A stretch of 32,000 nucleotides of DNA from Geobacter metallireducens GS-15 (GCF_000012925.1 NC_007517.1:2010001-2042000), one strand, 5' to 3'; positions 3,519 to 28,525 are shown, counted from the stretch's first letter. The notes: generated from the sequence alone by a model not told the origin. Numbers and translations are program-made.

Positions 3519-4112
3519 ATGAACCGAGCCGATAAGGCAATAGTCCTATATCAGACTCCGGACGGGTCATCTTCTCTTCAAGTCCATCTCGACCATGACA
3601 CCGTCTGGCTTACACAGAAGCAGATGGCCGAACTGTTTGGAAAGGATGTCAGAACCGTCAACGAACACATCAGGAACATCTTCAGGGAAGGGGAGCTTGA
3701 TGATGCTTCAGTTATCCGGAAATTCCGGATAACTGCCTCAGACGGTAAAAGCTACGATACGGCCCACTACAACCTCGACGTGATAATTTCCGTAGGCTAC
3801 CGGGTGAAGTCACAGCAAGGGACCCGCTTCCGCCAATGGGCGACCAGGGTGCTGCATGACCATATCGTCAAGGGGTACACGCTCAACGAGCAGCGGCTGC
3901 GGGAGGAGAGCGCCAAGTTGCAGGCGATGCAGCAGACGGTGGCATTGCTGGCGCGGACCCTGACCAATCAGGAGCTTGTCAGCGATACCGGCCGGGACGT
4001 GCTGCGGGTCATCGACGATTACGCCTATGCGCTGGCAACCCTTGACCGTTACGACCACGGGACGCTGGCCATCGAAGGAATTACCCGCCAGGCCCAACAG
4101 AGAATTGTATAA
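3519..4112 (+). CDS. RhuM-family protein, C-terminally truncated
   Basis: WLTQKQMAELFGKDVRTVNEHIRNIF...YNLDVIISVGYRVKSQQGTRFRQWATRVL...IVKGYTLNEQRL is the RhuM N-terminal module. At 197 aa it is far shorter than the 300+ aa members I recall, and the stop arises right at a junction with unrelated PAS-coding sequence. Confidence 0.75.
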   Translation: MNRADKAIVLYQTPDGSSSLQVHLDHDTVWLTQKQMAELFGKDVRTVNEHIRNIFREGELDDASVIRKFRITASDGKSYDTAHYNLDVIISVGYRVKSQQGTRFRQWATRVLHDHIVKGYTLNEQRLREESAKLQAMQQTVALLARTLTNQELVSDTGRDVLRVIDDYAYALATLDRYDHGTLAIEGITRQAQQRIV

Positions 4113-4297: not shown

Positions 4298-5650
4298 TTA
4301 TGCACTTACGGCACCTTGGTTCTCCTGCCGGACATCCCTGATCTGCCGTTTCCCGGTGCCGGTCGTGAACCAGCCGGCCCTGTCGAAGGTGATGCTCCCC
4401 AGCGTCAGCCCCCCCTGCCGGAACAGGGGATCGCTTGATTCGGCGCGCACAAGGGCGGCAACGGCCCCTCTGGCGACCTGTTCTTCCTGCCCCTCGCATG
4501 CCTGGAGACAGAGGTTGAGTTGATCCCGGCCGCCGTTATCGGCGATTTCGGCCGTAAAGTTCAGCAGTCCGGGAATCGGAAGCAACGCCTCGTCCAGAGT
4601 TGCCATGGCGATGCTTGCCCCATCCCTGAGCCTCACGGTCGCCCCGATTCGTCCCTGCACCCGCCCGAGACGTTTCAGCACCGTGCCGCAGGGGCAGGAT
4701 TCCGGCATCATCCTCGCCATATCCCCGGTCCGGTACCTCACGAGCGGCATCCCGCTTCGGGTGAGGGTCGTGAAGATCACTTCCCCGAACTCGCCATCGG
4801 CTACCGGCCGGCCTGTGGCCGGGTCGACGATTTCCGTGTACAGGTCGGCCTCGCGCAGATGGTAGCCGTCCCTTGCCTCACACTCCACGCCTCCCCCCAG
4901 CCCGGTTTCCGTCATGCCGTAGTGGGTGAAGACCCGGCAGCCCCAGTGCTGCTTCAGTTCCTCCACGATCGCCGTGGGCACGTAGTCCGTGGAAAGAAGG
5001 ACGCTCTCCACCCAGCCCCGTGGAATCGCCTCGCCACCCTCACCACGGGCCAGAGAAAGAATCTGGGTCGGTATCCCCACCAGGCAAGGGGAAGGGTGGC
5101 GCAGAATCTCCGCCCGTGCCGCTATCGGGTCCCGTACCGGTCCAAAGGCGACCGGCCTCACCCCCAGCCGTGCCAATCCCCGAGCCAGCAGATCACCAAC
5201 GCTGTCGGGTCGTTCGCCGGGCAGAAAGATGATGACGGTTGCCCCGGCAGCGACCATGGTCGCCATGCCGTGATGGAAAAAATCGACCGTCAGCTCCAGG
5301 TCTTCTGCCGTGAAAAATATCCGCTTTGCCTCGCCGCTGGTCCCTGAGGTTTGCAGGGTGACCACCCGTTCGATTTCGTCCTGGGAGGCGCAGAGCATCC
5401 GCATCCCCTGGGTTCGCACATCGTCCGGCGTCGTGAAGGGGAGGCGGCTGAATGCCTGCAGATCCTTCACGTCCCGACCGTCGATTTCGGCAAGAAGGTT
5501 CCGGTAGAAGGGGCTCTTCGTCCGGGCATAGGCGACCACCTCCCGCAGTTTTCGCACCTGATAGGCCTCGAGGTCGCTCCGCGTCAGTGCCTGCGTGCCG
5601 GGCAGAAGCAACTTGTCCCGTATCCACCCCTCCAGCGGCGTCCTATTCAT
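4298..5650 (-). CDS. adenylate-forming PaaK-like (phenylacetate-CoA-ligase family) enzyme, divergent paralog
   Basis: TSGTSGEAKRIFF (AMP motif), THYGMTETG, YRTGD. ATG at 5650 is preferred over 5671 because AAGGGG sits 8 nt upstream. It lies about 50 nt downstream of the C_GCAxxG_C_C gene on the same strand. Confidence 0.85.
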   Translation of the reverse strand: MNRTPLEGWIRDKLLLPGTQALTRSDLEAYQVRKLREVVAYARTKSPFYRNLLAEIDGRDVKDLQAFSRLPFTTPDDVRTQGMRMLCASQDEIERVVTLQTSGTSGEAKRIFFTAEDLELTVDFFHHGMATMVAAGATVIIFLPGERPDSVGDLLARGLARLGVRPVAFGPVRDPIAARAEILRHPSPCLVGIPTQILSLARGEGGEAIPRGWVESVLLSTDYVPTAIVEELKQHWGCRVFTHYGMTETGLGGGVECEARDGYHLREADLYTEIVDPATGRPVADGEFGEVIFTTLTRSGMPLVRYRTGDMARMMPESCPCGTVLKRLGRVQGRIGATVRLRDGASIAMATLDEALLPIPGLLNFTAEIADNGGRDQLNLCLQACEGQEEQVARGAVAALVRAESSDPLFRQGGLTLGSITFDRAGWFTTGTGKRQIRDVRQENQGAVSA

Positions 5651-5699
5651 CGCGGCACCCCTTTCTTCCATGCTTGTTTCACAGGGGGTAACGGAGTGG

Positions 5700-6155
5700 T
5701 CATTGACCTGTACCGCCCACGGTCGCCAGTATCGACTGGAGTTTCTCCATGGTTGCCAGCAGCAGGTCCGAGCAGGCCCGCTTGTCGGGGCTCGCCTTCA
5801 GGATTTCATCGCAGTTGATCCCGCCGTACTCTTTTTCCGCCCTGACCGAGAACCAGTCCCACAATTCAGCCAGCAGCAGGGGAAACTCCGAGTCCTGCAT
5901 CTCCCTCTCCCTCGAACCATCCAGTGCCAGTGACAACGCACATGACGCACCGGTGAGCACCCCGCAGGTGACGCCGGCGTAAAAACCGTTGCAGAGGGCC
6001 GCCATCGACCTGACCAGGTCCGGGTTGTCCCGACCCAGGTCGCGCAACACCAGCTTGACCACGATCTGGCTGCAACAGAGCCCTTGATGCTTCATGAGCA
6101 AAATGTCGAGATAGGGGCCATCGAAGGTGATCGTGTTCACTGACTGGTCGTTCAT
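5700..6155 (-). CDS. C_GCAxxG_C_C family protein
   Basis: LCCSQ...ALCNGFYAGVTCGVLTGASCAL...INCDEIL...RACSDL fits the C_GCAxxG_C_C cysteine pattern. ATG at 6155 has GGAG 9 nt upstream; the longer 186-aa version adds a non-homologous N-terminal extension. Confidence 0.8.
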   Translation of the reverse strand: MNDQSVNTITFDGPYLDILLMKHQGLCCSQIVVKLVLRDLGRDNPDLVRSMAALCNGFYAGVTCGVLTGASCALSLALDGSREREMQDSEFPLLLAELWDWFSVRAEKEYGGINCDEILKASPDKRACSDLLLATMEKLQSILATVGGTGQ

Positions 6156-6331
6156 GGTGTTGTTCTCCAGGTGAATCTTTTTATGGCCTGTTGTCATTCT
6201 TGGGCAGACAAGGCACCTTACAGATATTTGCACACTAAGCGAGATTTTTTTGTTTGACAAGTAAAATAGTAATGTAGTACTAATTTACGCAAATAAGCGT
6301 GAGCTTATGGTGGAGTCGTAGTAACAGGGTG

Positions 6332-6347
6332 CGGCAGATGCTTTGCA
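6332..6347 (+). promoter_or_regulatory. candidate sigma-54 (-24/-12) promoter
   Basis: cGGCAGatgctTTGCA: the GG (6333-34) and GC (6345-46) have the canonical 12-nt register of TGGCAC-N5-TTGCW. The predicted start near 6358 coincides with the beginning of riboswitch copy 1. The -24 hexamer matches only 4/6. Confidence 0.25.
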
Positions 6348-6363
6348 CCGCGAAAATTTAAAA

Positions 6364-6517
6364 CCGTCTCCGAGCTGCGGCGCCTAAAGGGAACATCCCC
6401 AAGGCGGTCCGGCCTATGGGTATCGCTGGAAACGGCGTTGCCTTCCTTATGCAAAGGGGACCCAACGGTGCGGAGGTGTGTCCGCGACGTTCAGGGGCCT
6501 TTCTATCCAGGAGAGCG
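6364..6517 (+). promoter_or_regulatory. Moco/Tuco (molybdenum/tungsten cofactor) riboswitch-like aptamer, copy 1
   Basis: Closing helix TCTCC(6367-71)/GGAGA(6510-14). Hairpin CGCTG-GAAA-CGGCG (6424-6437) has a GNRA tetraloop. CCTAAAG (6383-89) plus TATGG (6415-19) resemble the 11-nt tetraloop receptor. Further hairpin at 6463-6490. It lies upstream of pterin-cofactor enzyme and moeA genes. Confidence 0.65.
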
Positions 6518-6532
6518 CCCCTTTTGTTTTTT
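6493..6532 (+). terminator. intrinsic terminator of riboswitch copy 1
   Basis: AGGGGC-CTTTCT [atcca] GGAGAG-c-GCCCCT stem followed by TTTTGTTTTTT. Confidence 0.6.
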
Positions 6533-6590
6533 CCCTCCGAGGCTCTAGTGCGGGCTGTCGGCGGAAAGCGGGTCTTGAAAAAATTTAAAA

Positions 6591-6743
6591 CCGTCTCCGA
6601 GCCGCGGCGCCTAAAGGGAACATCCCCATGGCGGTCCGGCCTATGGGTATCGCTGGAAACGGCGTTGCCTTCCTTATGCAAAGGGGACCCAGCGACGCGG
6701 AGGTATGTCCGCGACGTTCAGGGGCCTTTCTATCCAGAGAGCG
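6591..6743 (+). promoter_or_regulatory. Moco/Tuco riboswitch-like aptamer, copy 2
   Basis: Same elements as copy 1, shifted by 227 nt. In the 3' hairpin a T-G wobble of copy 1 becomes a C-G pair, so the structure is preserved. Confidence 0.65.
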
Positions 6744-6759
6744 CCCCTGTTGTTTTTTT
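6720..6759 (+). terminator. intrinsic terminator of riboswitch copy 2
   Basis: AGGGGCCTTTCT [atcc] AGAGAGcGCCCCT stem followed by GTTGTTTTTTT. Confidence 0.6.
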
Positions 6760-6834
6760 GCGGGATAGACCGCGTACAACGTGTCCGGTGTGATGATGCC
6801 GGATTACGACAACAAGTGGAGAGAGGAGGAGGAT

Positions 6835-7017
6835 ATGAAATACGAAGAGGTCGGATGTTATCTGGAAATCAATCTGGCAACGGGAACTATCGAACGGGTG
6901 GCGCTGGAACCCGAGGTAATGAGAGAGCATCTGGGACGTCCCGGGGCCTGCATCGGGGAAGCGTGCGAGGGATTCTGCCAGCATTCGCTACAGACCTGCC
7001 TCCGCATAGAAAATTAG
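6835..7017 (+). pseudogene. 5' remnant of an AOR-family gene (60-aa ORF; could alternatively act as a leader peptide)
   Basis: MKYEEVGCYLEINLATGTIERVALEPEVMREHLG parallels the N-terminus of the next gene, MRYAEAGYYLEVDLAKGNIERVATDPRLMELHLG. It has its own GGAGGAGGA RBS. Similarity ends after about 34 codons, followed by unrelated sequence and a stop. Confidence 0.5.
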
Positions 7018-7050
7018 ACACAGGGTGTACATCGGGAAAAAGGAGGAAAA

Positions 7051-9021
7051 ATGAGATACGCAGAGGCAGGATATTATCTGGAAGTCGACCTGGCGAAGGG
7101 GAACATCGAACGGGTCGCAACCGATCCCAGGCTGATGGAGCTCCATCTCGGGGGGTTGGGAACAAGCGTCAAGCTCCACTGGGACAGGGTACCACCGGAA
7201 ACCAGGGCATTCGATCCCGAAAATCTGCTGGTATTCAGTACCGGCCTGCTGAACGGCACGCCGGTGTTCAGCGCCAACCGCACCGTTGTCTCTTTCATTT
7301 CGCCCCAATCGGGCACACTGGCCTATCCGATGATGGGGGGCTTTTTCGCGGCCGAGCTGAAGTATGCCGGCTACGATAAGATCATCTTCAAGAACAAGTC
7401 GCCCGACTGGGTCTACCTGTACGTCTCCAATAACAAGGTGGAGCTGCGTGATGCGTCGCATCTGAAGGGGAGGGGGGCGGTTGAGACCCAGGAACTCATC
7501 CGGAAGGAGCTGAACGATCCGAAAGCCCAGGTGGCTGCCATCGGTATCGCCGGCGAGAACCGGGTCTTTACGGCTTCCATTGAGCAATCCCGCTCAAGCG
7601 CCAGCCGACTCGGCGGCGGCGCGATCATGGGCGACAAGAAGATCAAGGCCGTGGCTGTCCGCGGCACCGGCGATGTCTTCCTTGCCCGGCCGGAAGAGTT
7701 CATGAAAGAGTTGCAGGGGGTGACGGATTATATCAAGTACCGGTGGGCCAACCCCATTAAGGACGTCATGACCATCCTTTCCGGCATCGGGTCGCCCCAG
7801 GAGATGCTCCATACCGATGAAAAATGGCATACGGAGAACTTCGCCTGGGGCAATGCCCGGACCCGGAGAAGGGACTTCTGGACCGAAGAGATCGACGAGT
7901 CATGGTCAAAGTCACAGCATGGCGCAGTAAAGCGTCTGATCAGCTGTTACAACTGTCCGACCCATTGCGGGGCGCTTATTTCCCACAAGGATACCCCACG
8001 GTATATGGCGAAATGCTTCGGCAAGCTCACCTATGCCATGGCGGCTTATGTGGATGACCTTGATTTCTCCTGGAAGATCCTCCAGCGCGCCACCGAGTAC
8101 GGGGTTGATTCCTTCTCGACGCCCCAGATTCTTGCCTTTGCCGTTGAGCTCTATGAAGCCGGCATTCTCACTGACAAGGACTTCAAGGGGTGTCCATCCG
8201 ACAAGGAAGGGAGATTCTTCTGGCTCCTCGACCGGGTCGCACGTCGTGAGGGGATTGGCGATATCCTGGCCGACGGCGTCTATTTCGCAGCCCGCAAGAT
8301 CGGCAACGGTGCGGAAGCCTTCGATCACAACACCATCAAGAAGCACGAGCAGCTCCCGGTCAAGCTCGGGACCCTGGATCCGCTCTATTTCCTCATGTAT
8401 TCCACCAACGAGAAGATCAGCATCACCCAGATGGAAGGACAGTGGCCCCAATCGGCCTTCCCAACCATGGAGCAGCGGGAGGAATTCGTCCGCGACTGGC
8501 CCCAGATTCCCGACGAAAAGTTCAAGCAGATCGTGCTGGACTGGGAACTGAGGGGGGAGAAGTCGATTCCCTACTTCCCGACACCGGACATGTGCTCTGA
8601 AATCGTGGACTGGATGGAGATGATGCACAACATCGATGACGCCGTGGGGATGTGCTGCGGCATGTCGTCCTTCTGCCTGAAGCCGCCCTATCACATCCAC
8701 AACTACCCGAAAATAATCTCCGCGGCTACCGGCCTGGATCTGGACGAGTCAGGGCTGAAGCAGATTGCCAACAGGAGCCGGAACCTGCACCGAGCCTACA
8801 ACAACAGGCTGGGTATCAGGAGGGTTGACGAAAAGCCGCCCGCTGACCACTGGAAGAAACGCTTCCCCGAACTGGAAGAGCAGCTTCTTTCCACCTATTA
8901 CACGTACAAGGGATGGAACCACGACGGCATTCCCACACGGGAAAAGCTGGAAGAACTGGACCTGGGCTATGTCGCCGACGACCTGGAAAAGAGGGGGATC
9001 TTGAAAAATGGCCAAAATTAA
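7051..9021 (+). CDS. tungsten-pterin aldehyde:ferredoxin oxidoreductase family protein, BamB-like subfamily
   Basis: AAGGAGGA RBS. AOR N-terminal domain. [4Fe-4S] motif CYNCPTHCG. 656 aa. The N-terminus MRYAE.GY.LEVDL.KG.IERVATDP and blocks such as EKWHTENFAWGNARTRR match what I remember of Geobacter BamB (class II benzoyl-CoA reductase active subunit); unverified. Confidence 0.9.
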   Translation: MRYAEAGYYLEVDLAKGNIERVATDPRLMELHLGGLGTSVKLHWDRVPPETRAFDPENLLVFSTGLLNGTPVFSANRTVVSFISPQSGTLAYPMMGGFFAAELKYAGYDKIIFKNKSPDWVYLYVSNNKVELRDASHLKGRGAVETQELIRKELNDPKAQVAAIGIAGENRVFTASIEQSRSSASRLGGGAIMGDKKIKAVAVRGTGDVFLARPEEFMKELQGVTDYIKYRWANPIKDVMTILSGIGSPQEMLHTDEKWHTENFAWGNARTRRRDFWTEEIDESWSKSQHGAVKRLISCYNCPTHCGALISHKDTPRYMAKCFGKLTYAMAAYVDDLDFSWKILQRATEYGVDSFSTPQILAFAVELYEAGILTDKDFKGCPSDKEGRFFWLLDRVARREGIGDILADGVYFAARKIGNGAEAFDHNTIKKHEQLPVKLGTLDPLYFLMYSTNEKISITQMEGQWPQSAFPTMEQREEFVRDWPQIPDEKFKQIVLDWELRGEKSIPYFPTPDMCSEIVDWMEMMHNIDDAVGMCCGMSSFCLKPPYHIHNYPKIISAATGLDLDESGLKQIANRSRNLHRAYNNRLGIRRVDEKPPADHWKKRFPELEEQLLSTYYTYKGWNHDGIPTREKLEELDLGYVADDLEKRGILKNGQN

Positions 9022-9544
9022 ACGGAAAGTCAGGACGATCACGGTTGATGCCGACAAGTGCAACGGCTGCCGGACCTGCGAAATCATGTGCTCCGCCTTC
9101 CACGCGGTTCCGCCGTACAGCAGCAACAACCCGGCACGGTCGCGCATCCAGGTCATCACCAACCGGCTCGAGGACATCTGGATGCCGGTCTTTGCCGGCG
9201 AGTACACCGAATCCGAGTGCATGGGGCGGAACAAGTACATCATCGACGGCAAGGAATACAACGAGTGCGACTCCTGCCGTGCCGCCTGCCCCTCACGGGA
9301 TCTGTTCAAGGAACCGGATTCGGGTCTGCCCCTGAAATGCGACATGTGCGACGGCGAAGATGAGCCGGTATGTGTCAAGTGGTGCCTGGTCGATGCCCTA
9401 GTCTACGAGGAGCGGGAAGAGGAAGTGGAAGAGAAGGATATACAAACAACGGTGACCGAGATGGAGGTCGGTCTGGAATCGCTGGTGCGAAAACATGGTT
9501 TCGACAAGGTAATGGATACGGTTGCCCGAATGTCGAAGAAGTGA
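9008..9544 (+). CDS. multi-[4Fe-4S] ferredoxin-like protein, BamC-like partner of the AOR
   Basis: 14-nt overlap with the AOR stop. CNGCRTCEIMC, CDSCRAACP and CDMCDG...CVKWC cluster motifs. Confidence 0.85.
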   Translation: MAKIKRKVRTITVDADKCNGCRTCEIMCSAFHAVPPYSSNNPARSRIQVITNRLEDIWMPVFAGEYTESECMGRNKYIIDGKEYNECDSCRAACPSRDLFKEPDSGLPLKCDMCDGEDEPVCVKWCLVDALVYEEREEEVEEKDIQTTVTEMEVGLESLVRKHGFDKVMDTVARMSKK

Positions 9545-9581
9545 TACTACTTCCGGGCGCAAGAACGGGTAGCATGATACT

Positions 9582-9602
9582 CCCCCCGGCAGGGCCGGGG
9601 GG
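9582..9602 (+). other. GC-only hairpin between the ferredoxin gene and moeA
   Basis: CCCCCCGGC-agg-GCCGGGGGG, a perfect 9-bp stem with no U tract. Confidence 0.3.
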
Positions 9603-9653
9603 ACCACAACATGCGTCCAACATGGAAGCTGAACGGATTTTGGAGAAGGTGAG

Positions 9654-10958
9654 ATGCCAGGCTCAGAGGAAACCCTCCGGATTATTCTTGATAACATAAC
9701 TCCGCTCGGAGTGGAGCGTGTCGACCTGCAGTCCGCCCTGGGGAGGGTCCTGGCCAGGGATGTGGTGGCACCATGGGATTTGCCGCTTTTCGACAATTCG
9801 GCGAGGGACGGATTCGCCCTGAGAAGTGCGGACTGCACGGGCGAGGGGACCACCCTACGGATTACCGGCTTTATTCCGGCCGGATGCAATGTGTCGGAGC
9901 CGGTTCTGGGGGGGTGCGCCGTCCGGATCATGACCGGTGCACCTATCCCCCACAACTGCGATGCGGTGGTGCCGGGGGAGGATACCCTGGAGACAGATGG
10001 CCAGGTGACGGTCATGGCGCCGGTCCGTCGCCGGCAGTATATCCGCTTCCGGGGTGAGGACCTGACAGGCGGTGACCTGGTGCTGACGGAGGGGACGGTC
10101 ATTCAGGCACAGGAAATAGGCTTGCTGGCCTCATTTGGCCAAGCGGTGGTGCCGGTCTACCGGAAGGCGCGGGTGGCGGTGCTCTCCACCGGCGATGAGT
10201 TGATCGAACTGGGAGAGCAGCCGTCAAACGGACGCATCATCAACAGCAATGCCCAGTATCTGGCTGCGGCTCTCAGGGAGATCGGCGCCGAGCCGATTCT
10301 CCTCTGCATCGGTCGTGACAACCGGGAAAGCCTGAAAGAGCAGCTTCAGACGGGACTGAAGGCCGATGCGCTGATCACTACGGCCGGCGTCTCGGCAGGA
10401 GCCCGGGACCTCGTGCGGGATGTGCTGGTTGAGGTGGGGGTCAGGCAGATGCTCGGAAAGATTGAGATGAAGTCGGGCGGACCCAAGGCCTTCGGCATGA
10501 AGGACGGGATCCCGGTCTTCTCCCTTCCCGGCAATCCGCTGTCGACCATGGTCACGTTCGAGGAATTCGTCAGACCGGGGCTGCTCAGGCTGATGGGGCA
10601 TCGCCGGACGGTCAGGCCGAACCTCAAGGCACGGCTGCGGGAAGATATCCGCAAGGAGCCCGGCCGGGTCCATTGCCAGTCGGTCCGGGTAGAGGCGGAG
10701 AACGGCCGCTACATGGCCACCACGGTCGGAAACCACAAGGCGTGCCGGCTGAGTACCATCCAACGGGCCAATGCCATTGTCATCCTCCCCGAAGGACCGT
10801 CGGTGGTGGCGGCAGGGGAAGAGGTGGAGGTACATCTGCTGCGCGGTGACCTGGTCCTGCTGGAAGAACCGAACCTCACTGCCGGTTGCGTACCTGATGA
10901 CCGTGTGTCGGAAGAGGGGGAGACCTTCGAGAGAAGGGTGCGGGTGGCAACCCGTTAG
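9654..10958 (+). CDS. moeA: molybdopterin molybdenum/tungsten transferase MoeA
   Basis: LPLFDNSARDGFAL, IMTGAPIP, VLSTGDEL and TTAGVSAG are the standard MoeA domain order. 434 aa. Confidence 0.9.
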   Translation: MPGSEETLRIILDNITPLGVERVDLQSALGRVLARDVVAPWDLPLFDNSARDGFALRSADCTGEGTTLRITGFIPAGCNVSEPVLGGCAVRIMTGAPIPHNCDAVVPGEDTLETDGQVTVMAPVRRRQYIRFRGEDLTGGDLVLTEGTVIQAQEIGLLASFGQAVVPVYRKARVAVLSTGDELIELGEQPSNGRIINSNAQYLAAALREIGAEPILLCIGRDNRESLKEQLQTGLKADALITTAGVSAGARDLVRDVLVEVGVRQMLGKIEMKSGGPKAFGMKDGIPVFSLPGNPLSTMVTFEEFVRPGLLRLMGHRRTVRPNLKARLREDIRKEPGRVHCQSVRVEAENGRYMATTVGNHKACRLSTIQRANAIVILPEGPSVVAAGEEVEVHLLRGDLVLLEEPNLTAGCVPDDRVSEEGETFERRVRVATR

Positions 10959-10999
10959 GGAAGGGGTAGATATCATGCGACAGGATGGGGGACCGTCAG

Positions 11000-11482
11000 A
11001 TGAACGCGTATGAGCAGATCAGTTTGCAGATACCCGGGGAGGTCGAGCGTCTCATGGAGGACCGCTCGATCCTGAGGGAGGATGCGCAGAAGGTCATCCT
11101 TCATGCCGAGACCACCGGCAGGAAGCTGCTCAACTCTGCCACCGGCCATTTTCTCGCCTTCCATCGCCCCAAAGCGGTCACCTACTGGGCGGAGTATGTC
11201 CGGACCGGTGATGACTATCGGCTGGTCACCGCGTATTCCCACCGGATGGCGATGAAGTCCAGCGGGAGCACGCAGGAGTGGGTAAAATCCGGCAGCGGCA
11301 GCGAATGGCTCTGCAATCAGTGCCAGGCCCCCCTGGAGGAGCAAACTGTCAGGCTCCAGTACATGCAGTCCATATTTCCCATCACTCTTCCGGCCTGCTC
11401 CGGGTGCGGCTTCATCCTTGTCACTGAGGAGTTGGCAACCGGGAAGCTGGCCGCGGCAGAACAGGCGCTGGAAGACAAGTAA
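11000..11482 (+). CDS. small CxxC...CxxC (zinc-ribbon) protein of unknown function
   Basis: Alternative start at 10985; ATG 11000 has GGGGGA 9 nt upstream. CNQCQAPL...CSGCGFILV ribbon at the C-terminus. It sits between moeA and the methyltransferase with 23-41 nt gaps. The architecture fits what I recall as the DVU_1557-type 'redox protein' family; unverified. Confidence 0.65.
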   Translation: MNAYEQISLQIPGEVERLMEDRSILREDAQKVILHAETTGRKLLNSATGHFLAFHRPKAVTYWAEYVRTGDDYRLVTAYSHRMAMKSSGSTQEWVKSGSGSEWLCNQCQAPLEEQTVRLQYMQSIFPITLPACSGCGFILVTEELATGKLAAAEQALEDK

Positions 11483-11505
11483 CTTTCCGGCGGCACGGTG
11501 AACCG

Positions 11506-12192
11506 ATGAACGGTACCGCACTCAACTGGTTGGAGCTCTGTCGCACCGTGGGTCCGTGCCTACGGCCGGGTGGGACCGCGCTTACAGACCGGGCACTGGA
11601 GGTCTGCAACCTTTCCGCCGATTCCCTGATTGCCGATGTCGGCTGCGGTGCCGGCGGAACCCTGTATCACCTGGAACAAATCGGTTTCCGCCGCCTGGTG
11701 GGGCTCGACCCGTCGGAGACCCTTCTCGGGGATGCCGCCCCCCGCCTCGAAACGGCCCGCCTTATCCGGGGGGAGGCTGCAACGATCCCCCTCCGGAGCG
11801 CCACCGTCGATCTCCTTCTGTGTGAATGCGTCCTTTCCGTCCTCCCTGGCCGGTCGGCTCCCCTCCGGGAGTTTGCGCGGGTCGTGAAGGACGGCGGATA
11901 TCTGGTAGTGAGCGACGTTTTCAGCACGGCTGGAGACGAGGCCACAGGACAGGCCGGCGGGCTCCTCACCCGCAAGGAACTCCTTGCCGCGGTGGCCGGT
12001 AATGGCTTCACCCTCCTTCGGTGGGAAACCCACGACCGTTTGCTGAAGGAATTCGCGGTCCGCATGATCCTGGCCGGCGAATGCCTGCCGGATGCGTGGA
12101 AGGGTGGTACGGAGAGGAAAGGGGAGGCGGCCCGTGGGGGCCTCGGCTATTTCCTCATGGTGGCCCGAAAGGCTGAAGACCCGCTTCCGTAA
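11506..12192 (+). CDS. class I SAM-dependent methyltransferase
   Basis: Motif I IADVGCGAGGT and post-I LVGLDPS; acidic/hydrophobic motif DLLLCECVL. Confidence 0.85.
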   Translation: MNGTALNWLELCRTVGPCLRPGGTALTDRALEVCNLSADSLIADVGCGAGGTLYHLEQIGFRRLVGLDPSETLLGDAAPRLETARLIRGEAATIPLRSATVDLLLCECVLSVLPGRSAPLREFARVVKDGGYLVVSDVFSTAGDEATGQAGGLLTRKELLAAVAGNGFTLLRWETHDRLLKEFAVRMILAGECLPDAWKGGTERKGEAARGGLGYFLMVARKAEDPLP

Positions 12193-12210
12193 CAGATAAA
12201 GGATAGTGTC

Positions 12211-13608
12211 ATGGAAACAGTGAATCTGGGTGAAACCGAAAGCATCTGCCCCGTCTGCCTGAAAAGGATAGCGGCGACACGACAAGTGCTGGGTGACGAG
12301 GTCTTCCAGGTCAAGGAGTGCGACGAGCACGGTTCGTTCAGGACCCTTATCTGGCGCGGAAAGCCGTCACTGGCCGAGTGGCGGAGACCGAAGCCGCCCG
12401 TCCACCCCGAGCTCTGCTACGGGACCGTCGAGCAGGGGTGCCCGTTCGACTGCGGCCTCTGCAGTGCCCATGCACAGATGCCCTGTTCGGTGCTACTGGA
12501 GGTGACTGACCGGTGCAACCTGCAGTGCGCCGTCTGTTTTGCCGATTCCGGCCGAAAGGATTCCGTGGATACCTCCCTGGACAGGATCACCTGGCTGCTA
12601 GAACGGGCCATGGCAGCGGCTGGGCCGTGCAATCTCCAGTTGTCCGGCGGAGAGCCCACACTGCGGGACGATCTGCCGGAGATCGTGGCAGCGGCGCGGC
12701 GGATCGGTTTTTCCTTTATCCAGCTCAATACCAACGGCCTGCGCCTTGCCGCCGACGGGAATTATGCCGCCCGGTTGCGGTCGGCGGGGCTTTCGGCAGT
12801 CTTTCTCCAGTTCGACGGGGTCGACGACGGCATCTACCGCACCTTGAGGGGACGTCCGCTTCTGGAGCAGAAGCTCCGGGCCGTCAGGCATGCCGGCGAG
12901 GCCGGCCTCGGCGTGATCCTGGTCCCGACCATCGTGAGCGGAGTGAACAGCCATGCCGTCGGCGCCATCGTGCGGCAGGCCCTTCAATTGGCCCCAATCG
13001 TGCGGGGGATTCACTTCCAGCCTGTCAGCTATTTTGGCCGTTTCCCTGAGCAGGGCTGCGGCAACCGCTTCACTTTACCCGAACTGATGGGGTGTCTCGA
13101 AGAGCAGACCGACGGACTGCTCAGGCTGGCCGATTTCTCTCCTCCCGGTGGGGAACATGCCCACTGTTCCTTTCACGCCACATATCTCTACTCGGCCGAC
13201 GGCGGGCTGCGCTCCCTCGGGGCGATGGGGGGCGATTCCTGCTGCACGACCGACTGTGGCAGCGGGGGAATCAGGAGGACCGTGGATACCGTGTCGCGCC
13301 GCTGGAAGCTTCCCTCAGCCGCACCATGCTGCGGCAATCCCAGAGAATCGGAGCAGACCGATTGTTGTGAGTCGGGCAGATCAAACCCGGTCCGGGTCGA
13401 AGGGGCCATTGATCTGGATAGCTTTCTCCGGGATGTCGCCACCAGGAGTTTAACCATCTCTGCCATGGCATTTCAAGATGCGGAAAACCTGGATCTGGAG
13501 CGCCTCAGGGGGTGCTGCATATCGGTTGTGTCTCCCGATGGCCTGCTGGTGCCATTCTGTGCCTATAACCTGACCAGCAGGGACGGAAGGAGCCTTTACC
13601 GCCGATGA
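12211..13608 (+). CDS. radical SAM enzyme with N-terminal zinc ribbon and extra Cys motif (pterin-methylase/Tes-like architecture)
   Basis: CNLQCAVC (Cx3Cx2C) preceded by CPVCLKRI...CDEHG and CPFDCGLCSAH. GGEPTL SAM-binding glycine motif. Cys-rich C-terminal part CCTTDCGSGG...CCG...CC. Confidence 0.9.
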   Translation: METVNLGETESICPVCLKRIAATRQVLGDEVFQVKECDEHGSFRTLIWRGKPSLAEWRRPKPPVHPELCYGTVEQGCPFDCGLCSAHAQMPCSVLLEVTDRCNLQCAVCFADSGRKDSVDTSLDRITWLLERAMAAAGPCNLQLSGGEPTLRDDLPEIVAAARRIGFSFIQLNTNGLRLAADGNYAARLRSAGLSAVFLQFDGVDDGIYRTLRGRPLLEQKLRAVRHAGEAGLGVILVPTIVSGVNSHAVGAIVRQALQLAPIVRGIHFQPVSYFGRFPEQGCGNRFTLPELMGCLEEQTDGLLRLADFSPPGGEHAHCSFHATYLYSADGGLRSLGAMGGDSCCTTDCGSGGIRRTVDTVSRRWKLPSAAPCCGNPRESEQTDCCESGRSNPVRVEGAIDLDSFLRDVATRSLTISAMAFQDAENLDLERLRGCCISVVSPDGLLVPFCAYNLTSRDGRSLYRR

Positions 13609-14369: not shown

Positions 14370-14885
14370 ATGAATAAAGTGAGGCTTATCATCGGATTGG
14401 CGATTGTGACTGTGGCCATCGTCGCCGCCTCTGTCTTGTTGTACCTTCTGCCATTGGATGTTCGAGACCACTCCCCTGTCCAGCCGATTGCCTTCAGCCA
14501 TAAGTTGCACGCAGGCGACAACGGCATCCATTGTCTCTTCTGTCATAGTTACGCCGCGAAGTCCCCGGCTGCGGGTATCCCATCGATGGAGGAGTGCCGG
14601 GCCTGCCATCTGTTCATCTCACCGAACACTCCAGAAATAAAGAAACTGATGAAATACTGGGAAAAGCGTGAACCGATTCCCTGGGTCAAGGTTTACAGCC
14701 TGCCGGACTTCGTCTATTTCCCGCACATGATGCACGTCCGCGCTAAACTTTCCTGTGCAGCCTGCCACGGCGAGGTGGCTGCCATGGAACGGATCACCCG
14801 GACCGCAAGCCTCAAGATGGGATGGTGCCTGAACTGCCACCATCAGCATAAGGCCAGTATCGACTGCTGGACGTGTCACAAGTAG
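14370..14885 (+). CDS. actA: pentaheme cytochrome c, ActA-like
   Basis: N-terminal TM helix plus five CxxCH motifs (CLFCH, CRACH, CAACH, CLNCH, CWTCH). Confidence 0.85.
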   Translation: MNKVRLIIGLAIVTVAIVAASVLLYLLPLDVRDHSPVQPIAFSHKLHAGDNGIHCLFCHSYAAKSPAAGIPSMEECRACHLFISPNTPEIKKLMKYWEKREPIPWVKVYSLPDFVYFPHMMHVRAKLSCAACHGEVAAMERITRTASLKMGWCLNCHHQHKASIDCWTCHK

Positions 14886-14895
14886 CGGAGCGCAA

Positions 14896-17088
14896 ATGAA
14901 ACGGAGAACGTTTTTACAGCTTGGTACAGTAATAGCTGCCGGCGCCGTACTGGATGGATGCCGGTCAAAAAATGAGCAGCTCATCCCCTATCTCATTCCG
15001 CCGGATGAGGGGATAACTCCCGGCAAAGGTACTTATTATGCCAGCTCCTGCAATGCATGTCCTGCCGGCTGCGGCATCCTAGTCCGAGTGTCCGAGGGAC
15101 GGGCAAAGAAGATTGAGGGAAACCCGGAACATCCCATCAATAGAGGGAAACTCTGCGCCCGGGGGCAGGCCGTTGTTCAGGAACTTTACCATCCCGACCG
15201 CGTGCCTCATCCCCTCAAACGGAATGGCCCCCGTGGTTCCGGTGCCTTCACGCGGATTTCCTGGCAAGAGGGTATTGGGCTGCTCACGGATAGGCTCAAA
15301 GCTTTGCAGCGGGAACAGAGCACTAATGGCCTGGCTCTGCTGACGCCTCATTTGCGGGGTACCCTGGCGGAACTCACGGGTCGCTTCATGCGCACGTTCG
15401 GCTCGACCAACCACGTCTCCTATGAGTTGCTCACCCCCGACTTGCTTCGGATTGCTGCCCGTCGTAGCTTCGGGCAGCCTACCCTTCCCTATTACGACAT
15501 CGCCGAAACGCGCTATCTGCTCAGTTTCGGGGCTGATTTTGTGGACTCTCACCTGTCGCCGGTCAAGTATGGTTCCGCCTTTGGTGAGATGCGCCAGGGC
15601 CGTGACACGGTTCGCGGGCATTTCACCTATGTGGGGGGGCGCATGTCACTGACTGCCGCCTCGGCCGACCGCTGGATGCCTGCCAAGCCGGGGAGCGAAG
15701 GAACCCTGGCCCTTGGCATTGCACGCCTGATTCTGGCCGAGTCGCTTTACGACAGCGGAGCACTCGCGATGAACGGGCTTGAGGCAAAGAAACTGCTGGC
15801 CGCGCTGGACAGATACGATCTCCCCCGAGTGGCGCAGCTCTCCGGTCTGCCGCAAGGAGCGATCGCTGAGGTGGCACGGGAGTTTGCCTCGACCCGTCCC
15901 GCACTCGCTCTGGCCGGGGAGATGGTTGCCTTTCAGAGCAACGGCCCTGAATCGGTCCGTGCGGTCCACCTGCTCAATCTCCTGGTGGGAAGCCTGAATC
16001 GGCCGGGTGGGATCTACCCCGATGCAGGGTCCCCATCCGGACCGGAAAATTCCTTTGCCGAACTCATCGCTCTTATCGAGACGATGCGCGGCGGCCACGT
16101 GAAGGTGGCCATGATTCATGGCGATCCGCTCTATTCCGTTCCTCCGGCGACTGGGTTTCACGACGCACTGGCAAAGGTTCCGTTCATCGTCAGCTTTTCC
16201 TCGCTGCTCGACGATACCGCCCTGCACGCGGACTTGGTCCTTCCGGACCACGCCGCCCTGGAAAGCTGGGGAGACGTGATACCGGTCGCCGGCACCCGGG
16301 AACCGCTGGTGGGGCTTATGCAGCCGGTTGTGGAGCCTTTGTTCGATACCCGCCAGTTCCCCGAAGTGTTGCTGGCTACTGCCCATGAGCTGGGAGGCCG
16401 GATGGCTGCAGCATTACCGGACGAGTCGTACCTGGAGTTGCTGAAGGGAGCGGTCAGGAAGCAAGCCGGATTTGGGGCCGGCGTGGATTTCGAAGCGGCG
16501 TGGGTCGACCTGCTTCAGCACGGAGGGCTCTTTAAAACCAAGAGTGTCCAGCCCACCGGTTATCGATGGTCCTCGGACGCACCACCGCCATTGCCCGAGG
16601 ACCCGGACTTTGCCGGGGACCAGAAGACGTACCCATTCCATCTGATTGCCTACCCTGCCACCGCCTTTTATGACGGCCGCGGTGCACCGTATCCCTGGCT
16701 GCAGCAACTCCCGGACCCGATGACCACCGTCGTTTGGGGAAGTTGGGTGGAGATCAACCCCGAGACCGCAGCCGAGCACGGGATCGGCTTTGGCGATCTG
16801 GTGGAGGTCTCATCGCCCCAGGGCACACTCCGTCTGCCGGCCGTCGTTTATCCCGGAATCCGTCCGGACATGGTGGCGATCCCCTTGGGGCAGGGGCATC
16901 GGGGGATGGGACGCTATGCCCAGGGGCAAGGGGTAAATCCTCTCGCGCTGGTGGCACGGCAAGGGACGAAACAGCAGCCTGCCTGGAATGCTACCCGGGT
17001 GCGGATAACCAGAATCTCAGGGAATGGGGAACTGGTTACGGCAGGACATCCCCAGGGAAGCCTCCGGAGCGAGTTGGTCGAGATATAG
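14896..17088 (+). CDS. Tat-exported molybdopterin-oxidoreductase-family subunit (ActB1-like) with intact FS0 Cys motif
   Basis: Twin-arginine signal MKRRTFLQLG ending in the lipobox-like LDGC. CNACPAGCG-x27-C [4Fe-4S] motif. 730 aa with MopB fold text. Confidence 0.85.
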   Translation: MKRRTFLQLGTVIAAGAVLDGCRSKNEQLIPYLIPPDEGITPGKGTYYASSCNACPAGCGILVRVSEGRAKKIEGNPEHPINRGKLCARGQAVVQELYHPDRVPHPLKRNGPRGSGAFTRISWQEGIGLLTDRLKALQREQSTNGLALLTPHLRGTLAELTGRFMRTFGSTNHVSYELLTPDLLRIAARRSFGQPTLPYYDIAETRYLLSFGADFVDSHLSPVKYGSAFGEMRQGRDTVRGHFTYVGGRMSLTAASADRWMPAKPGSEGTLALGIARLILAESLYDSGALAMNGLEAKKLLAALDRYDLPRVAQLSGLPQGAIAEVAREFASTRPALALAGEMVAFQSNGPESVRAVHLLNLLVGSLNRPGGIYPDAGSPSGPENSFAELIALIETMRGGHVKVAMIHGDPLYSVPPATGFHDALAKVPFIVSFSSLLDDTALHADLVLPDHAALESWGDVIPVAGTREPLVGLMQPVVEPLFDTRQFPEVLLATAHELGGRMAAALPDESYLELLKGAVRKQAGFGAGVDFEAAWVDLLQHGGLFKTKSVQPTGYRWSSDAPPPLPEDPDFAGDQKTYPFHLIAYPATAFYDGRGAPYPWLQQLPDPMTTVVWGSWVEINPETAAEHGIGFGDLVEVSSPQGTLRLPAVVYPGIRPDMVAIPLGQGHRGMGRYAQGQGVNPLALVARQGTKQQPAWNATRVRITRISGNGELVTAGHPQGSLRSELVEI

Positions 17089-17125
17089 GGAAGCCGCGCA
17101 AGCGGTCATCGGGATTGAGTCGATT

Positions 17126-17839
17126 ATGGAAACAATGACGAGTCAGTACAGATGGGGGATGGTTGTCGACCTTGATCGGTGCACCGGCTGCGGCGCTTGC
17201 GTTGTTGCCTGTCAGGCGGAGAACAACGTGGCCATCTGCGGCAAGAAGGAGATATCCGAAGGACGCAACATGCACTGGTTACGCATCGAGCGGTTCTGGG
17301 TGGGACAGTATCCGGACGTGCGGGCGCGCTTTCTCCCGGTACTCTGTCAGCACTGTCATGACGCCCCCTGTGAGCCGGTCTGCCCGGTTTATGCCAGCTA
17401 CCACAACCCCGACGGTCTTAATGGGCAGGTGTACAACCGCTGCGTCGGCACCAGGTACTGCGGTAATAACTGCCCCTATGCCGTAAGAGTCTTCAACTTC
17501 TACAACCACGAATGGCCCAACCCCCTCGATAATCAACTTTCTCCGGACATGACCGTGCGTACCCGGGGAGTGATGGAAAAATGCACTTTCTGCATCCAGC
17601 GCATCCGAAGGGCCAAGGAAGATGCCAAGTCCGAAAATCGCACCATTCGTGACGGAGAGATACAACCGGCCTGCGCCCAGACCTGTCCAACCGACGCTCT
17701 GGTGTTCGGGAACATGGCCGACCCTCGGAGCCGGGTCGCCATCCTTTCCCGCAGCCCCAGGCGCTTCCGGCTGCTGGAGCATCTGGGCACCCACCCCTCG
17801 ATTTGCTATCTCAAGGGAGGAGGACGCGAGCATGTCTGA
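17126..17839 (+). CDS. 4x[Fe-S] ferredoxin subunit (ActB2/PsrB/NrfC-like)
   Basis: CTGCGACVVAC, CQHCHDAPCEPVCP, CVGTRYCGNNCP and CTFC...CAQTCP. The track ORF was trimmed to ATG 17126, after the upstream stop at 17088. Confidence 0.85.
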   Translation: METMTSQYRWGMVVDLDRCTGCGACVVACQAENNVAICGKKEISEGRNMHWLRIERFWVGQYPDVRARFLPVLCQHCHDAPCEPVCPVYASYHNPDGLNGQVYNRCVGTRYCGNNCPYAVRVFNFYNHEWPNPLDNQLSPDMTVRTRGVMEKCTFCIQRIRRAKEDAKSENRTIRDGEIQPACAQTCPTDALVFGNMADPRSRVAILSRSPRRFRLLEHLGTHPSICYLKGGGREHV

Positions 17840-19202: not shown

Positions 19203-19206
19203 TCGA

Positions 19207-19791
19207 ATGGAAGTCCTCGGGATTTTCAGCGACAAGGAGAGCGCAGGGGTAGCCGTTGAGCACCTGATCAAAGAAGGGTTCGTCGAAAGGCAAATCACCT
19301 CTCTCACGTCGGTTGCCTATCCTGACGGCGTGCTTGTGAGGACAGAACAGCGTACCTGGTTCCGTTGGTTCACCCTGGCCTGCGGCATAGCCGGCGCCGG
19401 CGCCGGTTTCCTTCTTGCGGCAGGCACTGCTTGGCTCTATCCGGTTAAGACCGGCGACAAGCCCATTATCGCCTTTTACCCGACCGGCATCGTCACCTAC
19501 GAGCTCACCATGCTTTTTGCACTTGCAGGAACCATCATCGGGATGTTTCTGGAAATGGGCCTCCCTTCGTTACGAAAACGCGTTTACGATCCTCTCATAG
19601 CCGAGGGGTACATTGGCATCAGCGTTTCCATACATTCCGGAGGCGTGGCCGTAGCCTGCGAAGCGGACGTGTCGCCCCGCGAGTGTATTGGCACGGTTGC
19701 GGCTCTTCCCTCCGACGAGCAGGTGAGTCGGGCTGAGGAACTCATGAAGGCGGCCGGAGCCGTCAGGATCATTGCCGAGGATAGGATATGA
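19207..19791 (+). CDS. actD: DUF3341/ActD-like membrane subunit
   Basis: AAAAGGAG RBS. MEVLGIFSDKESAGVAVEHL N-terminus followed by two TM helices. Confidence 0.8.
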   Translation: MEVLGIFSDKESAGVAVEHLIKEGFVERQITSLTSVAYPDGVLVRTEQRTWFRWFTLACGIAGAGAGFLLAAGTAWLYPVKTGDKPIIAFYPTGIVTYELTMLFALAGTIIGMFLEMGLPSLRKRVYDPLIAEGYIGISVSIHSGGVAVACEADVSPRECIGTVAALPSDEQVSRAEELMKAAGAVRIIAEDRI

Positions 19792-23315: not shown

Positions 23316-23328
23316 ACGGTGACCTCGC

Positions 23329-24072: not shown

Positions 24073-24075
24073 TCC

Positions 24076-25807: not shown

Positions 25808-25825
25808 AACAAGAGCCCGTGTTTG

Positions 25826-26710: not shown

Positions 26711-26734
26711 AGATTATGTGTCTGGCTCACAAGG

Positions 26735-26767
26735 AGGGAGCGCAGACCGACAAAGCCTGCGCTCCCT
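26735..26767 (-). other. intercistronic stem-loop between the binding-protein and permease genes
   Basis: AGGGAGCGCAG-11 nt-CTGCGCTCCCT, a perfect 11-bp stem with no clear U tract. Confidence 0.4.
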
Positions 26768-26800
26768 TGATTGGTTGAAGGTCCATGTATGATTAAGCGG

Positions 26801-27949: not shown

Positions 27950-28019
27950 CCTCCCCGTTGATTACTTCACCAACTCCCAGTCTCCCCTGATGATCCCCGC
28001 GGCTCTCCCAGCGTAGCGA

Positions 28020-28451: not shown

Positions 28452-28525
28452 TCCATCCTCCTCGCAGGGTCAGGCCTGCTCGCTCTCCTTGTTTTGGACG
28501 CGGCACGAGTGTGCCCCGGCGGGCA

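Follow-up and report, generated by a model that had tools for sequence, protein, structure and literature searches.

The tungsten-dependent class II benzoyl-CoA reductase (BCR) is a key enzyme of aromatic degradation in strict anaerobes, and a paralogue of its catalytic module is predicted in the locus considered here, where it stands beside a cassette of five accessory proteins. The locus spans positions 4298-13608 of a 32,000-nucleotide stretch of the Geobacter metallireducens GS-15 genome (GCF_000012925.1, NC_007517.1:2010001-2042000; "the window" in what follows, with positions counted from its first letter). It corresponds to Gmet_1800-Gmet_1807 and is the known bamB2 locus of this organism, with exact protein matches for the large enzyme of the aldehyde:ferredoxin oxidoreductase (AOR) family (ABB32031), the radical S-adenosylmethionine (SAM) protein TrsS (ABB32036), the methyltransferase (ABB32035), the adenylating ligase (ABB32029) and the C-GCAxxG-C-C protein (WP_004512046).

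When considered from the side of the large enzyme, the closest described system is the class II BCR, BamBCDEFGHI (PDB 4z3w-4z40). Gmet_1802/1803 have been described as the bamB/bamC paralogues bamB2/bamC2, located outside the aromatics island and encoding products 66% and 64% identical to BamB and BamC, respectively, and benzoate induces the cluster Gmet_1795-1810 (Butler et al. 2007, PMC1924859). Gmet_1804 has been named moeA-3 (Aklujkar et al. 2009, PMC2700814). The sixth tungsten ligand of BamB has been identified as water in a 2025 review, and a 2026 preprint treats the BamB cofactor as an aqua-W-bis-metallopterin; an extra tungsten ligand was therefore dropped as a motivation for the accessory genes. 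No paper linking BamB maturation to these genes was found.

When considered from the side of the accessory genes, the closest described system is the DVU_1551-DVU_1559/TrsS neighbourhood (NCBIfam NF045663-NF045669, NF045645 and NF045646), whose consecutive accessions (NF045663-NF045669) indicate that curators already treat the cassette as one neighbourhood. A four-protein core has been described in Clostridium ljungdahlii (Aklujkar et al. 2017, PMC5640608). TrsS itself is related to GDGT-MAS/Tes (PDB 7tol), an enzyme that works via a carbon-sulfur(cluster) intermediate according to the paper on its structure. The authors of that paper could not corroborate the activity implied by the JGI label "7,8-dihydro-6-hydroxymethylpterin dimethyltransferase" of TrsS relatives and considered the annotation incorrect, and a role of TrsS as a pterin methylase, suggested by the JGI name and by Pfam "HMPTM", was set aside on this account. 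Finally, tandem molybdenum cofactor (Moco) RNAs have already been reported in G. metallireducens, and those lacking the P3 stem were proposed to sense the tungsten cofactor (Tuco) (Regulski et al. 2008, PMC2408646); tandem Moco/Wco arrangements have since been catalogued (Sherlock 2022, PMC9481103). Thus, the bamB2 locus, the tandem riboswitch and the names of the accessory families are already known from the literature or from RefSeq. As far as could be checked, what is new is that the cassette is tied specifically to the BamB2 clade, that its partner enzyme changes among three pterin families and one non-pterin family, that its flavoprotein may be reduced to a fused domain, and that one of its proteins carries an invariant C-terminal Lys.

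Distribution of the cassette and its partner enzymes

A HMMER scan of 1.84 billion representative sequences returned 576 TrsS relatives at E < 1e-30, and at least 599 species-representative genomes from many anaerobic phyla carry such a relative. Eighty taxonomically spread loci were examined, covering Bacillota, Desulfobacterota, Chloroflexota, Bacteroidales, Synergistales, Actinomycetes, Alphaproteobacteria and one Hadarchaeum. All open reading frames (ORFs) at the loci were clustered without bias and the cluster representatives were named by NCBIfam, in a set of 86 sequences (85 loci plus the window); since several locus contigs end early, the following cluster counts are lower bounds:

Ligase cluster, at least 70 of 86 sequences
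Methyltransferase cluster, at least 68 of 86 sequences
C-GCAxxG-C-C cluster, at least 63 of 86 sequences
Pyridine nucleotide-disulfide oxidoreductase (PNDR)/dicluster flavoprotein cluster, at least 63 of 86 sequences
XdhC-like cluster, at least 42 of 86 sequences
NTP transferase-HD cluster, at least 42 of 86 sequences

The canonical order begins with a Mop-type aldehyde oxidoreductase (NF045668), the PNDR/dicluster flavoprotein (NF045663), DVU_1557, the methyltransferase and the C-GCAxxG-C-C protein, and continues with TrsS, the ligase, an XdhC-like protein (NF045664), the DVU_1551 NTP transferase-HD protein and a CobC-like phosphatase. Its inner part, DVU_1557-methyltransferase-C-GCAxxG-C-C-TrsS-ligase, is conserved across phyla. 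A relative of the NF045663 PNDR/CCG flavoprotein was found in 72 of the 86 sequences searched, and a disulfide-reductase-type flavoprotein, either GltD-like with CCG domains or dihydrolipoyl-dehydrogenase-like, is nearly always present. The "AYSHR" domain pairs with the DVU_1557 ribbon in several ways, occurring at the C-terminal end of the flavoprotein, on its own in a protein of about 91 residues or, in the window, as a fusion to the ribbon. TrsS is fused in turn to the DVU_1553 ligase, to the DVU_1556 methyltransferase, to the MocA-like DVU_1551 NTP transferase or to MbdU. These fusion proteins (P0123, P0124, P0127, P0128, P0131, P0132, P0149, P0165, P0169 and P0170) are given as gene-called, and selenocysteine (Sec) read-through or a gene-calling artefact may account for some of them.

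The enzyme beside this set is far more variable. A xanthine oxidase (XO)-family enzyme adjoins the cassette in 55/80 loci by BLAST (53/80 being Mop-type by clustering), BamB2/BamC2 in one (L038) besides the Geobacter-type loci, and a dimethyl sulfoxide (DMSO)-reductase-type enzyme in another (L024), so that a pterin enzyme is present in 57 of the 80; the first-pass annotation of the window, made from its sequence alone, had placed the cassette next to a pterin enzyme, and this is indeed the usual arrangement. In four further loci (L057, L068, L073 and L076) the partner is a non-pterin reductase of the double-cubane/HGD type with its activase. Upon annotation, one of these, the Oscillospiraceae/Syntrophales variant L068 (762-15586), was seen to encode an acyl-CoA dehydratase activase and two HGD-D/double-cubane-type subunits and no pterin enzyme, together with two TrsS paralogues, an MbdU-like DUF5714 protein, ArsR and an ABC transporter; in this variant a dihydrolipoyl-dehydrogenase-type flavoprotein (TIGR01350, 457 bits, cut-off 409) and a Sir2/CobB protein deacylase replace the NF045663 flavoprotein. 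L073 and L076 share its gene clusters, and L057 holds a subset of them. No large oxidoreductase lies nearby in 12 loci with full or nearly full flanks. Cofactor helpers fitting the partner enzyme, namely XdhC-like, MocA-like, MoeA and MOSC proteins, accompany the cassette, and a cysteine desulfurase and an Fe-alcohol dehydrogenase each occur at six loci. Taken together, the gene neighbourhoods show what appears to be a portable accessory module whose partner oxidoreductase changes between genomes.

The DMSO-reductase-type locus, from a metagenome-assembled genome (MAG) of a deltaproteobacterium (L024, 4316-16256), deserves a separate description. Its pterin enzyme is a hybrid of an unusual kind, which has a 2Fe-2S domain at the N-terminus and an FAD subunit of the XO type; the cassette follows, ahead of genes for MoeA, a MOSC protein and a radical SAM enzyme of DUF3641.

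When the question was turned round, 79 metagenomic BamB loci were split at 78% identity to the BamB2 of the window. Cassette genes adjoin BamB in 16 of the 32 loci at or above this value and in 2 of the 47 below it (Fisher p = 2.5e-6), the lower-identity BamBs being mostly followed by BamD/E. This split ties the cassette to the BamB2 clade and not to BamB in general, and it provides the co-occurrence that the first-pass annotation had proposed to look for. In Geobacter pickeringii, MoeA-DUF7479-methyltransferase-C-GCAxxG-C-C-TrsS-ligase lies immediately upstream of BamB-BamC-BamD-BamE; in Geoanaerobacter pelophilus (L003), tandem riboswitches and a 62-residue ORF precede BamB-BamC-DUF7479-methyltransferase-C-GCAxxG-C-C-TrsS-ligase, and the next gene set is an ABC transporter with a TOBE domain, probably of the molybdate/tungstate type. 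The same BamB2-cassette block is found in a Sterolibacterium MAG and in an alphaproteobacterial MAG. Identity of BamB2 to the window copy is 97% in G. pickeringii (L002, 13045-15015), 89% in the alphaproteobacterial MAG (L038, 3852-5822) and 80% in the Sterolibacterium MAG (L001, 164-2134). An identity of 80-97% across classes, against the reported 66% to the BamB1 of the same organism, suggests horizontal spread, which may have involved the BamB2-cassette block as a whole.

The distribution gives the question some weight. The usual partner, the Mop-type aldehyde oxidoreductase, is plentiful in sulfate reducers and often met in gut Firmicutes, and, should activity depend on the cassette, an overlooked requirement for making these enzymes in foreign hosts would come to light. 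G. metallireducens is genetically tractable, and, with the locus being induced by benzoate, the question is directly testable in this organism.

Possible role of the cassette

The reading we prefer, held with slightly more doubt than conviction, is that of an enzyme-coupled accessory module which would build and service a cysteine/thiol-based, possibly protein-bound, redox group or relay needed by the partner enzyme, and which would not tailor the pterin; at the bamB2 locus, MoeA and the riboswitches would look after the supply of tungsten cofactor. The ligase would activate and load a carboxylate, TrsS and the methyltransferase would modify the loaded carboxylate, and the C-GCAxxG-C-C protein and the flavoprotein would recycle the redox group. 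A thiol-based group, possibly tethered to protein, is tentatively suggested by the disulfide-reductase flavoproteins, the Cys-rich small proteins, the cysteine desulfurase of some loci, the Lys-terminated ribbon and the relation of TrsS to an enzyme with a carbon-sulfur(cluster) intermediate, taken together; this group is put forward as a hypothesis, not as a result. Because the partner enzyme varies while the disulfide-reductase flavoprotein and the Lys-terminated zinc-ribbon protein are constant, protein adducts and thiol chemistry, and not the pterin alone, should be looked at.

Several points weigh against this proposal. The pterin link (57/80 loci) is statistically strong, and the fusions of TrsS to a MocA-like protein fit a cofactor role. 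The non-pterin variant occurs in only 4/80 loci, its methyltransferase scores 109 bits, under the family cut-off of 155, and it may be a diverged system. Sequence and fold searches link the zinc-ribbon protein of the window, Gmet_1805, to no known carrier protein, and no PNDR body was found in the window.

The same two observations, the pterin enzymes in 57/80 loci and the TrsS-MocA-like fusion, make cofactor maturation a serious rival. According to this explanation, which we consider rather unlikely, the cassette would be a dedicated system for maturing or tailoring the W/Mo pyranopterin cofactor or the metal site, through modification, a special ligand, sulfuration or insertion. It would account for the partnership with three non-homologous families of pterin enzymes, for the co-localisation of XdhC-like, MocA-like, MoeA and MOSC proteins, cysteine desulfurase and the probable molybdate/tungstate-type transporter of L003, and for the presence of moeA-3 inside an operon under Tuco riboswitch control. 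However, the helper genes can be explained by the partner enzyme's own needs, and the cassette also occurs with non-pterin reductases or at loci that lack a neighbouring large enzyme. A tailored pterin or a special metal ligand, as the first-pass annotation had inferred, appears less likely, because the BamB cofactor is described as an ordinary W-bis-metallopterin with Cys322 and water as ligands, because the pterin-methylase label of TrsS relatives is uncorroborated, and because the four loci with non-pterin reductases imply that pterin is not the sole common denominator. The high-resolution structure of the Desulfovibrio gigas Mop enzyme, moreover, reportedly contains an ordinary molybdopterin cytosine dinucleotide (MCD) cofactor, which likewise counts against tailoring.

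Cassette proteins of the bamB2 locus

All five accessory families exceed their curated NCBIfam cut-offs in the window:

4298-5671, minus strand: Gmet_1800, DVU_1553 adenylate-forming ligase, PaaK/F390-synthetase-like (NF045666, 483.2 bits, cut-off 300)
5700-6155, minus strand: Gmet_1801, DVU_1555 C-GCAxxG-C-C protein (NF045669, 142.5 bits, cut-off 103; PF09719, E 1.3e-20)
10985-11482 (annotated start 11000), plus strand: Gmet_1805, predicted AYSHR-DVU_1557 fusion (NF045645, 91.3 bits, cut-off 60, residues 107-165)
11506-12192, plus strand: Gmet_1806, DVU_1556 class I SAM methyltransferase (NF045667, 192.9 bits, cut-off 155)
12211-13608, plus strand: Gmet_1807, TrsS radical SAM protein, Cys form (NF045646, 622.5 bits, cut-off 490, model positions 2-441)

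The DVU_1553, DVU_1555, DVU_1556 and DVU_1557 families, which the first-pass annotation had named, were therefore correct, and so was its description of them as a co-occurring, functionally unassigned set; the set is a conserved one. In comparison with the DVU_1551-DVU_1559 neighbourhood, the close relatives L001, L002, L003 and L038 keep the canonical DVU_1557-methyltransferase-C-GCAxxG-C-C-TrsS-ligase order, whereas in the window a divergent, leftward operon has taken up the genes of the ligase and the C-GCAxxG-C-C protein. The rightward operon comprises a 60-residue ORF, BamB2-BamC2, MoeA-3, Gmet_1805, the methyltransferase and TrsS. The partner is BamB2/BamC2, a tungsten enzyme of the AOR family, and not a Mop-type molybdenum aldehyde oxidoreductase; MoeA stands where the canonical set has XdhC-like and MocA-like helpers, all that is left of the PNDR/CCG flavoprotein is a stretch of 88 C-terminal residues fused to DVU_1557, and a tandem Tuco riboswitch has been added. 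Neither NF045668, full-length NF045663, NF045664 nor NF045665 (the DVU_1551 NTP transferase) was found in the window.

The ligase Gmet_1800, whose annotated start gives 450 residues (4298-5650), retains the P-loop, hinge and C-terminal Lys motifs. Its nearest solved structures are PaaK enzymes (113-121 bits), but against the PaaK models TIGR02155 and NF041878 it scores 125-153 bits and does not reach their cut-offs of 646-700, whereas the two real PaaK genes of the window score 585-615 bits. The likeness to PaaK raises the alternative of a substrate-level pathway, in which the ligase would make the CoA thioester of an aromatic or other carboxylic acid, the large enzyme would perform its demanding reduction, and the methyltransferase and TrsS would decorate the product, with BamB, class-I-BCR/HGD-like and XO-family enzymes as non-orthologous alternatives for the reductive step. 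Benzoate induction of the locus and the Fe-alcohol dehydrogenase at six loci would fit such a pathway, and both BamB and the BcrAD/HGD families, which act on CoA thioesters, occur as partners. We regard it as improbable, however, since the ligase is far from true PaaK, the commonest partner is the Mop-type aldehyde oxidoreductase, which is not a CoA-ester enzyme, and the zinc-ribbon protein, the C-GCAxxG-C-C protein and the disulfide reductases would be left without a role. The hosts also include Blautia, Acetobacterium and Clostridium tyrobutyricum, and, to our knowledge, aromatics degradation has not been described for many cassette hosts such as these. For Gmet_1801, the second gene of the leftward operon, a sequence search of solved structures returned no relative.

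The methyltransferase Gmet_1806 has ArsM-type models among its next-best matches after its own family (36-40 bits), which opens the alternative that the cassette handles metalloids, selenium or sulfur: an ArsM-like methyltransferase and the radical SAM enzyme would make or detoxify methylated species, the redox enzyme being incidental or an electron source. The family names imply selenoprotein forms of TrsS, MbdU ("metal-binding double selenoprotein") is fused to TrsS or lies near it, and the Oscillospiraceae variant has an ArsR regulator and an ABC transporter. Nonetheless, the ArsM similarity reflects no more than the class I fold in general, no transporter, ArsR or arsenic gene accompanies the cassette in the window, and the cassette is benzoate-induced and shares an operon with BamB2 and MoeA, so that this explanation is very improbable.

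In our preferred reading, a thiol-based redox group, TrsS would act on the loaded carboxylate, and its comparison with GDGT-MAS/Tes bears on that step. The name TrsS is said to have been introduced by Haft and Tolstoy in 2025, and RefSeq calls Gmet_1807 a "radical SAM (seleno)protein TrsS". TrsS shares with GDGT-MAS/Tes a CX2CX20CX2H rubredoxin-type site, an N-terminal auxiliary-cluster Cys/His motif and the radical SAM CX3CX2C motif; in a 43-sequence alignment, the latter, the N-terminal Zn-ribbon/rubredoxin Cys and the auxiliary-cluster Cys are invariant, and these motifs can be read directly in Gmet_1807. The match to GDGT-MAS 7tol (270 bits), however, is confined to residues 8-311, the score to NF045702 (313.8 bits) lies below the cut-off of 450, and the C-terminal domain is a different one with three invariant Cys. 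Bacterial hosts with a cassette genomic context further argue against a lipid role. In three loci where TrsS fell outside its cluster, translation for a Sec site revealed uninterrupted Cys forms throughout.

Gmet_1805 (160/165 residues) had been taken for a 160-residue zinc-ribbon protein. The ribbon stands, being of the DVU_1557 type, but it makes up only part of the protein: residues 4-91 align with positions 671-758, the last 88 positions matched, of NF045663, a 759-residue PNDR/dicluster protein, and Gmet_1805 is thus best described as a predicted fusion of the "AYSHR" C-terminal domain of the flavoprotein with a DVU_1557 zinc ribbon. The latter domain (NF045645/DUF7479) has a four-Cys ribbon and a C-terminal LEDK, and in 40 of the 41 members aligned, which come from widely separated phyla, it ends in LEDK or LEEK followed by the stop codon. 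An AlphaFold2 (AF2) model (pLDDT 88, pTM 0.83) has two domains and a terminal helix bearing the C-terminal Lys. A profile search of the PDB (E up to 10) and a Foldseek search of the AF2 model gave no significant match; a LysW-like carrier was considered for this protein, and, with no LysW in either search, is kept as a functional analogy only.

A bolder version of the thiol-based reading, which we hold to be distinctly improbable, would make the DVU_1557-type domain a new carrier protein with a lipoyl-like arm, a previously unknown protein-bound cofactor. The DVU_1553 ligase would load an acyl group on or near the invariant C-terminal Lys, TrsS and the methyltransferase would turn it into a lipoyl-like thiol or dithiol arm, and the C-GCAxxG-C-C protein and the disulfide-reductase flavoprotein would recycle the arm. 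Low-potential oxidoreductases, among them the dearomatising tungsten enzyme of the BamB2 type, would have in this arm a redox relay dedicated to them. The likeness to the lipoyl-protein system (LplA/LipB, LipA, lipoyl-Lys carrier, dihydrolipoyl dehydrogenase and Sir2-type lipoamidase) is an analogy in function only. Its counterparts in the cassette would be the adenylating ligase, the radical SAM protein with auxiliary clusters, the small carrier-like protein with a terminal Lys and the disulfide-reductase flavoprotein, and one variant even has a dihydrolipoyl-dehydrogenase-type enzyme and a Sir2 deacylase. In contrast, the cassette methyltransferase has no counterpart there, and no sequence or fold relation to LplA, LipA or lipoyl domains was found.

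BamB2, BamC2 and MoeA-3

The remaining genes of the rightward operon that have a recognisable function are the following:

7051-9021, plus strand: Gmet_1802, BamB2, W-bis-pyranopterin enzyme of the AOR family (full-length match to PDB 4z3w_A, 1017 bits)
9008-9544, plus strand: Gmet_1803, BamC2 polyferredoxin (279 bits to 4z3w_E), overlapping bamB2 by 14 nt
9654-10958, plus strand: Gmet_1804, MoeA-3, metal insertion into molybdopterin (Pfam MoeA_N, MoCF_biosynth and MoeA_C)

The earlier recognition of a BamB-like tungsten AOR and a BamC-like ferredoxin is borne out by these scores. The gene calls and the spacings along the rightward operon (-14, 109, 41 with the start at 11000, 23 and 18 nt) also stand, but for the start of the AOR gene, which lies at 7051 and not at 6835. 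BamB2/BamC2 is a predicted paralogue of the class II BCR catalytic module, known from its sequence and its induction. In the alignment with 4z3w_A, BamB2 keeps the tungsten ligand Cys322, the proton donor His260, Glu251, Glu257 and the [4Fe-4S] motif, and it has the adjacent, overlapping bamC2 and the benzoate induction in common with the BCR genes. By contrast, the Zn-site residue His255 is replaced by Thr, with a His at 254, and no bamDEFGHI genes follow bamB2/bamC2 or occur elsewhere in the window. The G. pickeringii orthologue of BamB2 does adjoin BamD-E and the following bam-type genes. MoeA-3 scores 340 bits against NCBIfam MoeA NF007960, under the equivalog cut-off of 440, and is accordingly assigned, from its domains and score, to the MoeA family below the equivalog level.

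Tandem riboswitches and regulation

The intergenic region between the two operons carries two riboswitch aptamers, as had been proposed, and each is followed by a predicted terminator:

6356-6475, plus strand: Moco/Tuco riboswitch aptamer 1, without P3 (RF01055, 63.6 bits, E 3e-13)
6493-6531, plus strand: terminator of riboswitch 1, hairpin 6493-6522 and U-run (-30 kcal/mol, z -3.2)
6583-6702, plus strand: Moco/Tuco riboswitch aptamer 2, without P3 (RF01055, 68.1 bits, E 1.4e-14)
6719-6759, plus strand: terminator of riboswitch 2, hairpin 6719-6749 and U-run (-34.2 kcal/mol, z -4.65)

Both scores lie well above the RF01055 gathering score of 36 bits. Both aptamers align with model positions 1-135 and lack positions 60-74, the P3 stem, a deletion that marks the Tuco type; they form a tandem duplication with a 227-nt period, the direct repeat being 96% identical over 158 nt. 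Being full-length, P3-less and provided with their own terminators, they show no essential difference from described members of the family. The GC-rich hairpin with its U-run after each aptamer was found by folding; a sigma-70 promoter scan and a simple terminator scan of 6100-7100 gave no match, the latter because the loops and bulges of both terminators fall outside its pattern. The arrangement points to two serial transcription-termination OFF switches acting on the rightward operon, and MoeA-3 and the Tuco switches would together manage the tungsten-cofactor supply of BamB2.

Since both aptamers are on the plus strand, the leftward operon with the ligase and C-GCAxxG-C-C genes is outside their control, and the locus cannot be called riboswitch-centred, as the first-pass annotation had it. 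Benzoate/acetate ratios of 5.6 for Gmet_1800, 5.0 for Gmet_1801, 2.3 for Gmet_1805 and 2.6 for Gmet_1807 (Butler supplementary table, PMC1924859), and inductions of 23.6-fold for Gmet_1802, >15 for Gmet_1803 and 4.5 for Gmet_1804 (Butler main text, PMC1924859), cover genes of both divergent operons, so that both respond to benzoate.

Scanning with two covariance models built from the hits, the riboswitch was detected in no more than 5 of the 80 diverse cassette loci and in 2 of the 79 metagenomic BamB loci. This rules it out as a general feature of the cassette system: it is a lineage-specific, local regulatory addition and not a hallmark. In four of the five loci it directly precedes the gene of the large enzyme, a known arrangement for Moco riboswitches, and in the fifth (L069) it precedes the C-GCAxxG-C-C gene heading an XO operon. 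On one MAG contig (L043, 2167-16808), a Moco riboswitch stands at the head of a complete cassette operon of the Mop type, and the opposite strand bears a separate gene of the AOR family (27% identity to BamB2) with a riboswitch of its own.

Between the second terminator and bamB2 lies one further reading frame:

6835-7017, plus strand: 60-codon ORF ending in TAG

Over the first 40 residues it shares 53% identity with the N-terminus of BamB2, and it has a strong Shine-Dalgarno sequence and a Cys-rich tail with the motif C.GFCQHS..TCLR.E. The ORF is kept in frame in Geoanaerobacter pelophilus (L003, 5497-5685, 62 residues) and in L086, is absent from the other BamB loci, and has been gene-called in 23 assemblies. 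It may represent a relic, act as a leader peptide or encode a small protein.

Flanking genes

Directly downstream of TrsS (14370-20243, plus strand), a membrane redox complex resembling Qrc/alternative complex III is encoded. Its multihaem cytochrome is QrcA-like, its molybdopterin-family subunit (Gmet_1810) QrcB-like, its FeS subunit QrcC-like and its membrane subunit DsrP/NrfD-like, and there is an additional cytochrome c. Because Gmet_1810 is reported to be 2-fold up on benzoate, this complex may serve as the quinone link for the bamB2 locus. Further to the right (22014-31968, minus strand), the two phenylacetate-CoA ligases of true PaaK type (585 and 615 bits) lie with a Liv-type ABC transporter and an indolepyruvate:ferredoxin oxidoreductase in a module of the aromatic amino-acid type, and by family score these PaaKs are unrelated to the DVU_1553 ligase. 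To the left of the ligase gene, an ORF resembling a restriction endonuclease for phosphorothioated DNA and a RhuM-family ORF (1631-2278 and 3519-4112, plus strand) fit the island-like, mobile character of the region noted by Butler et al.

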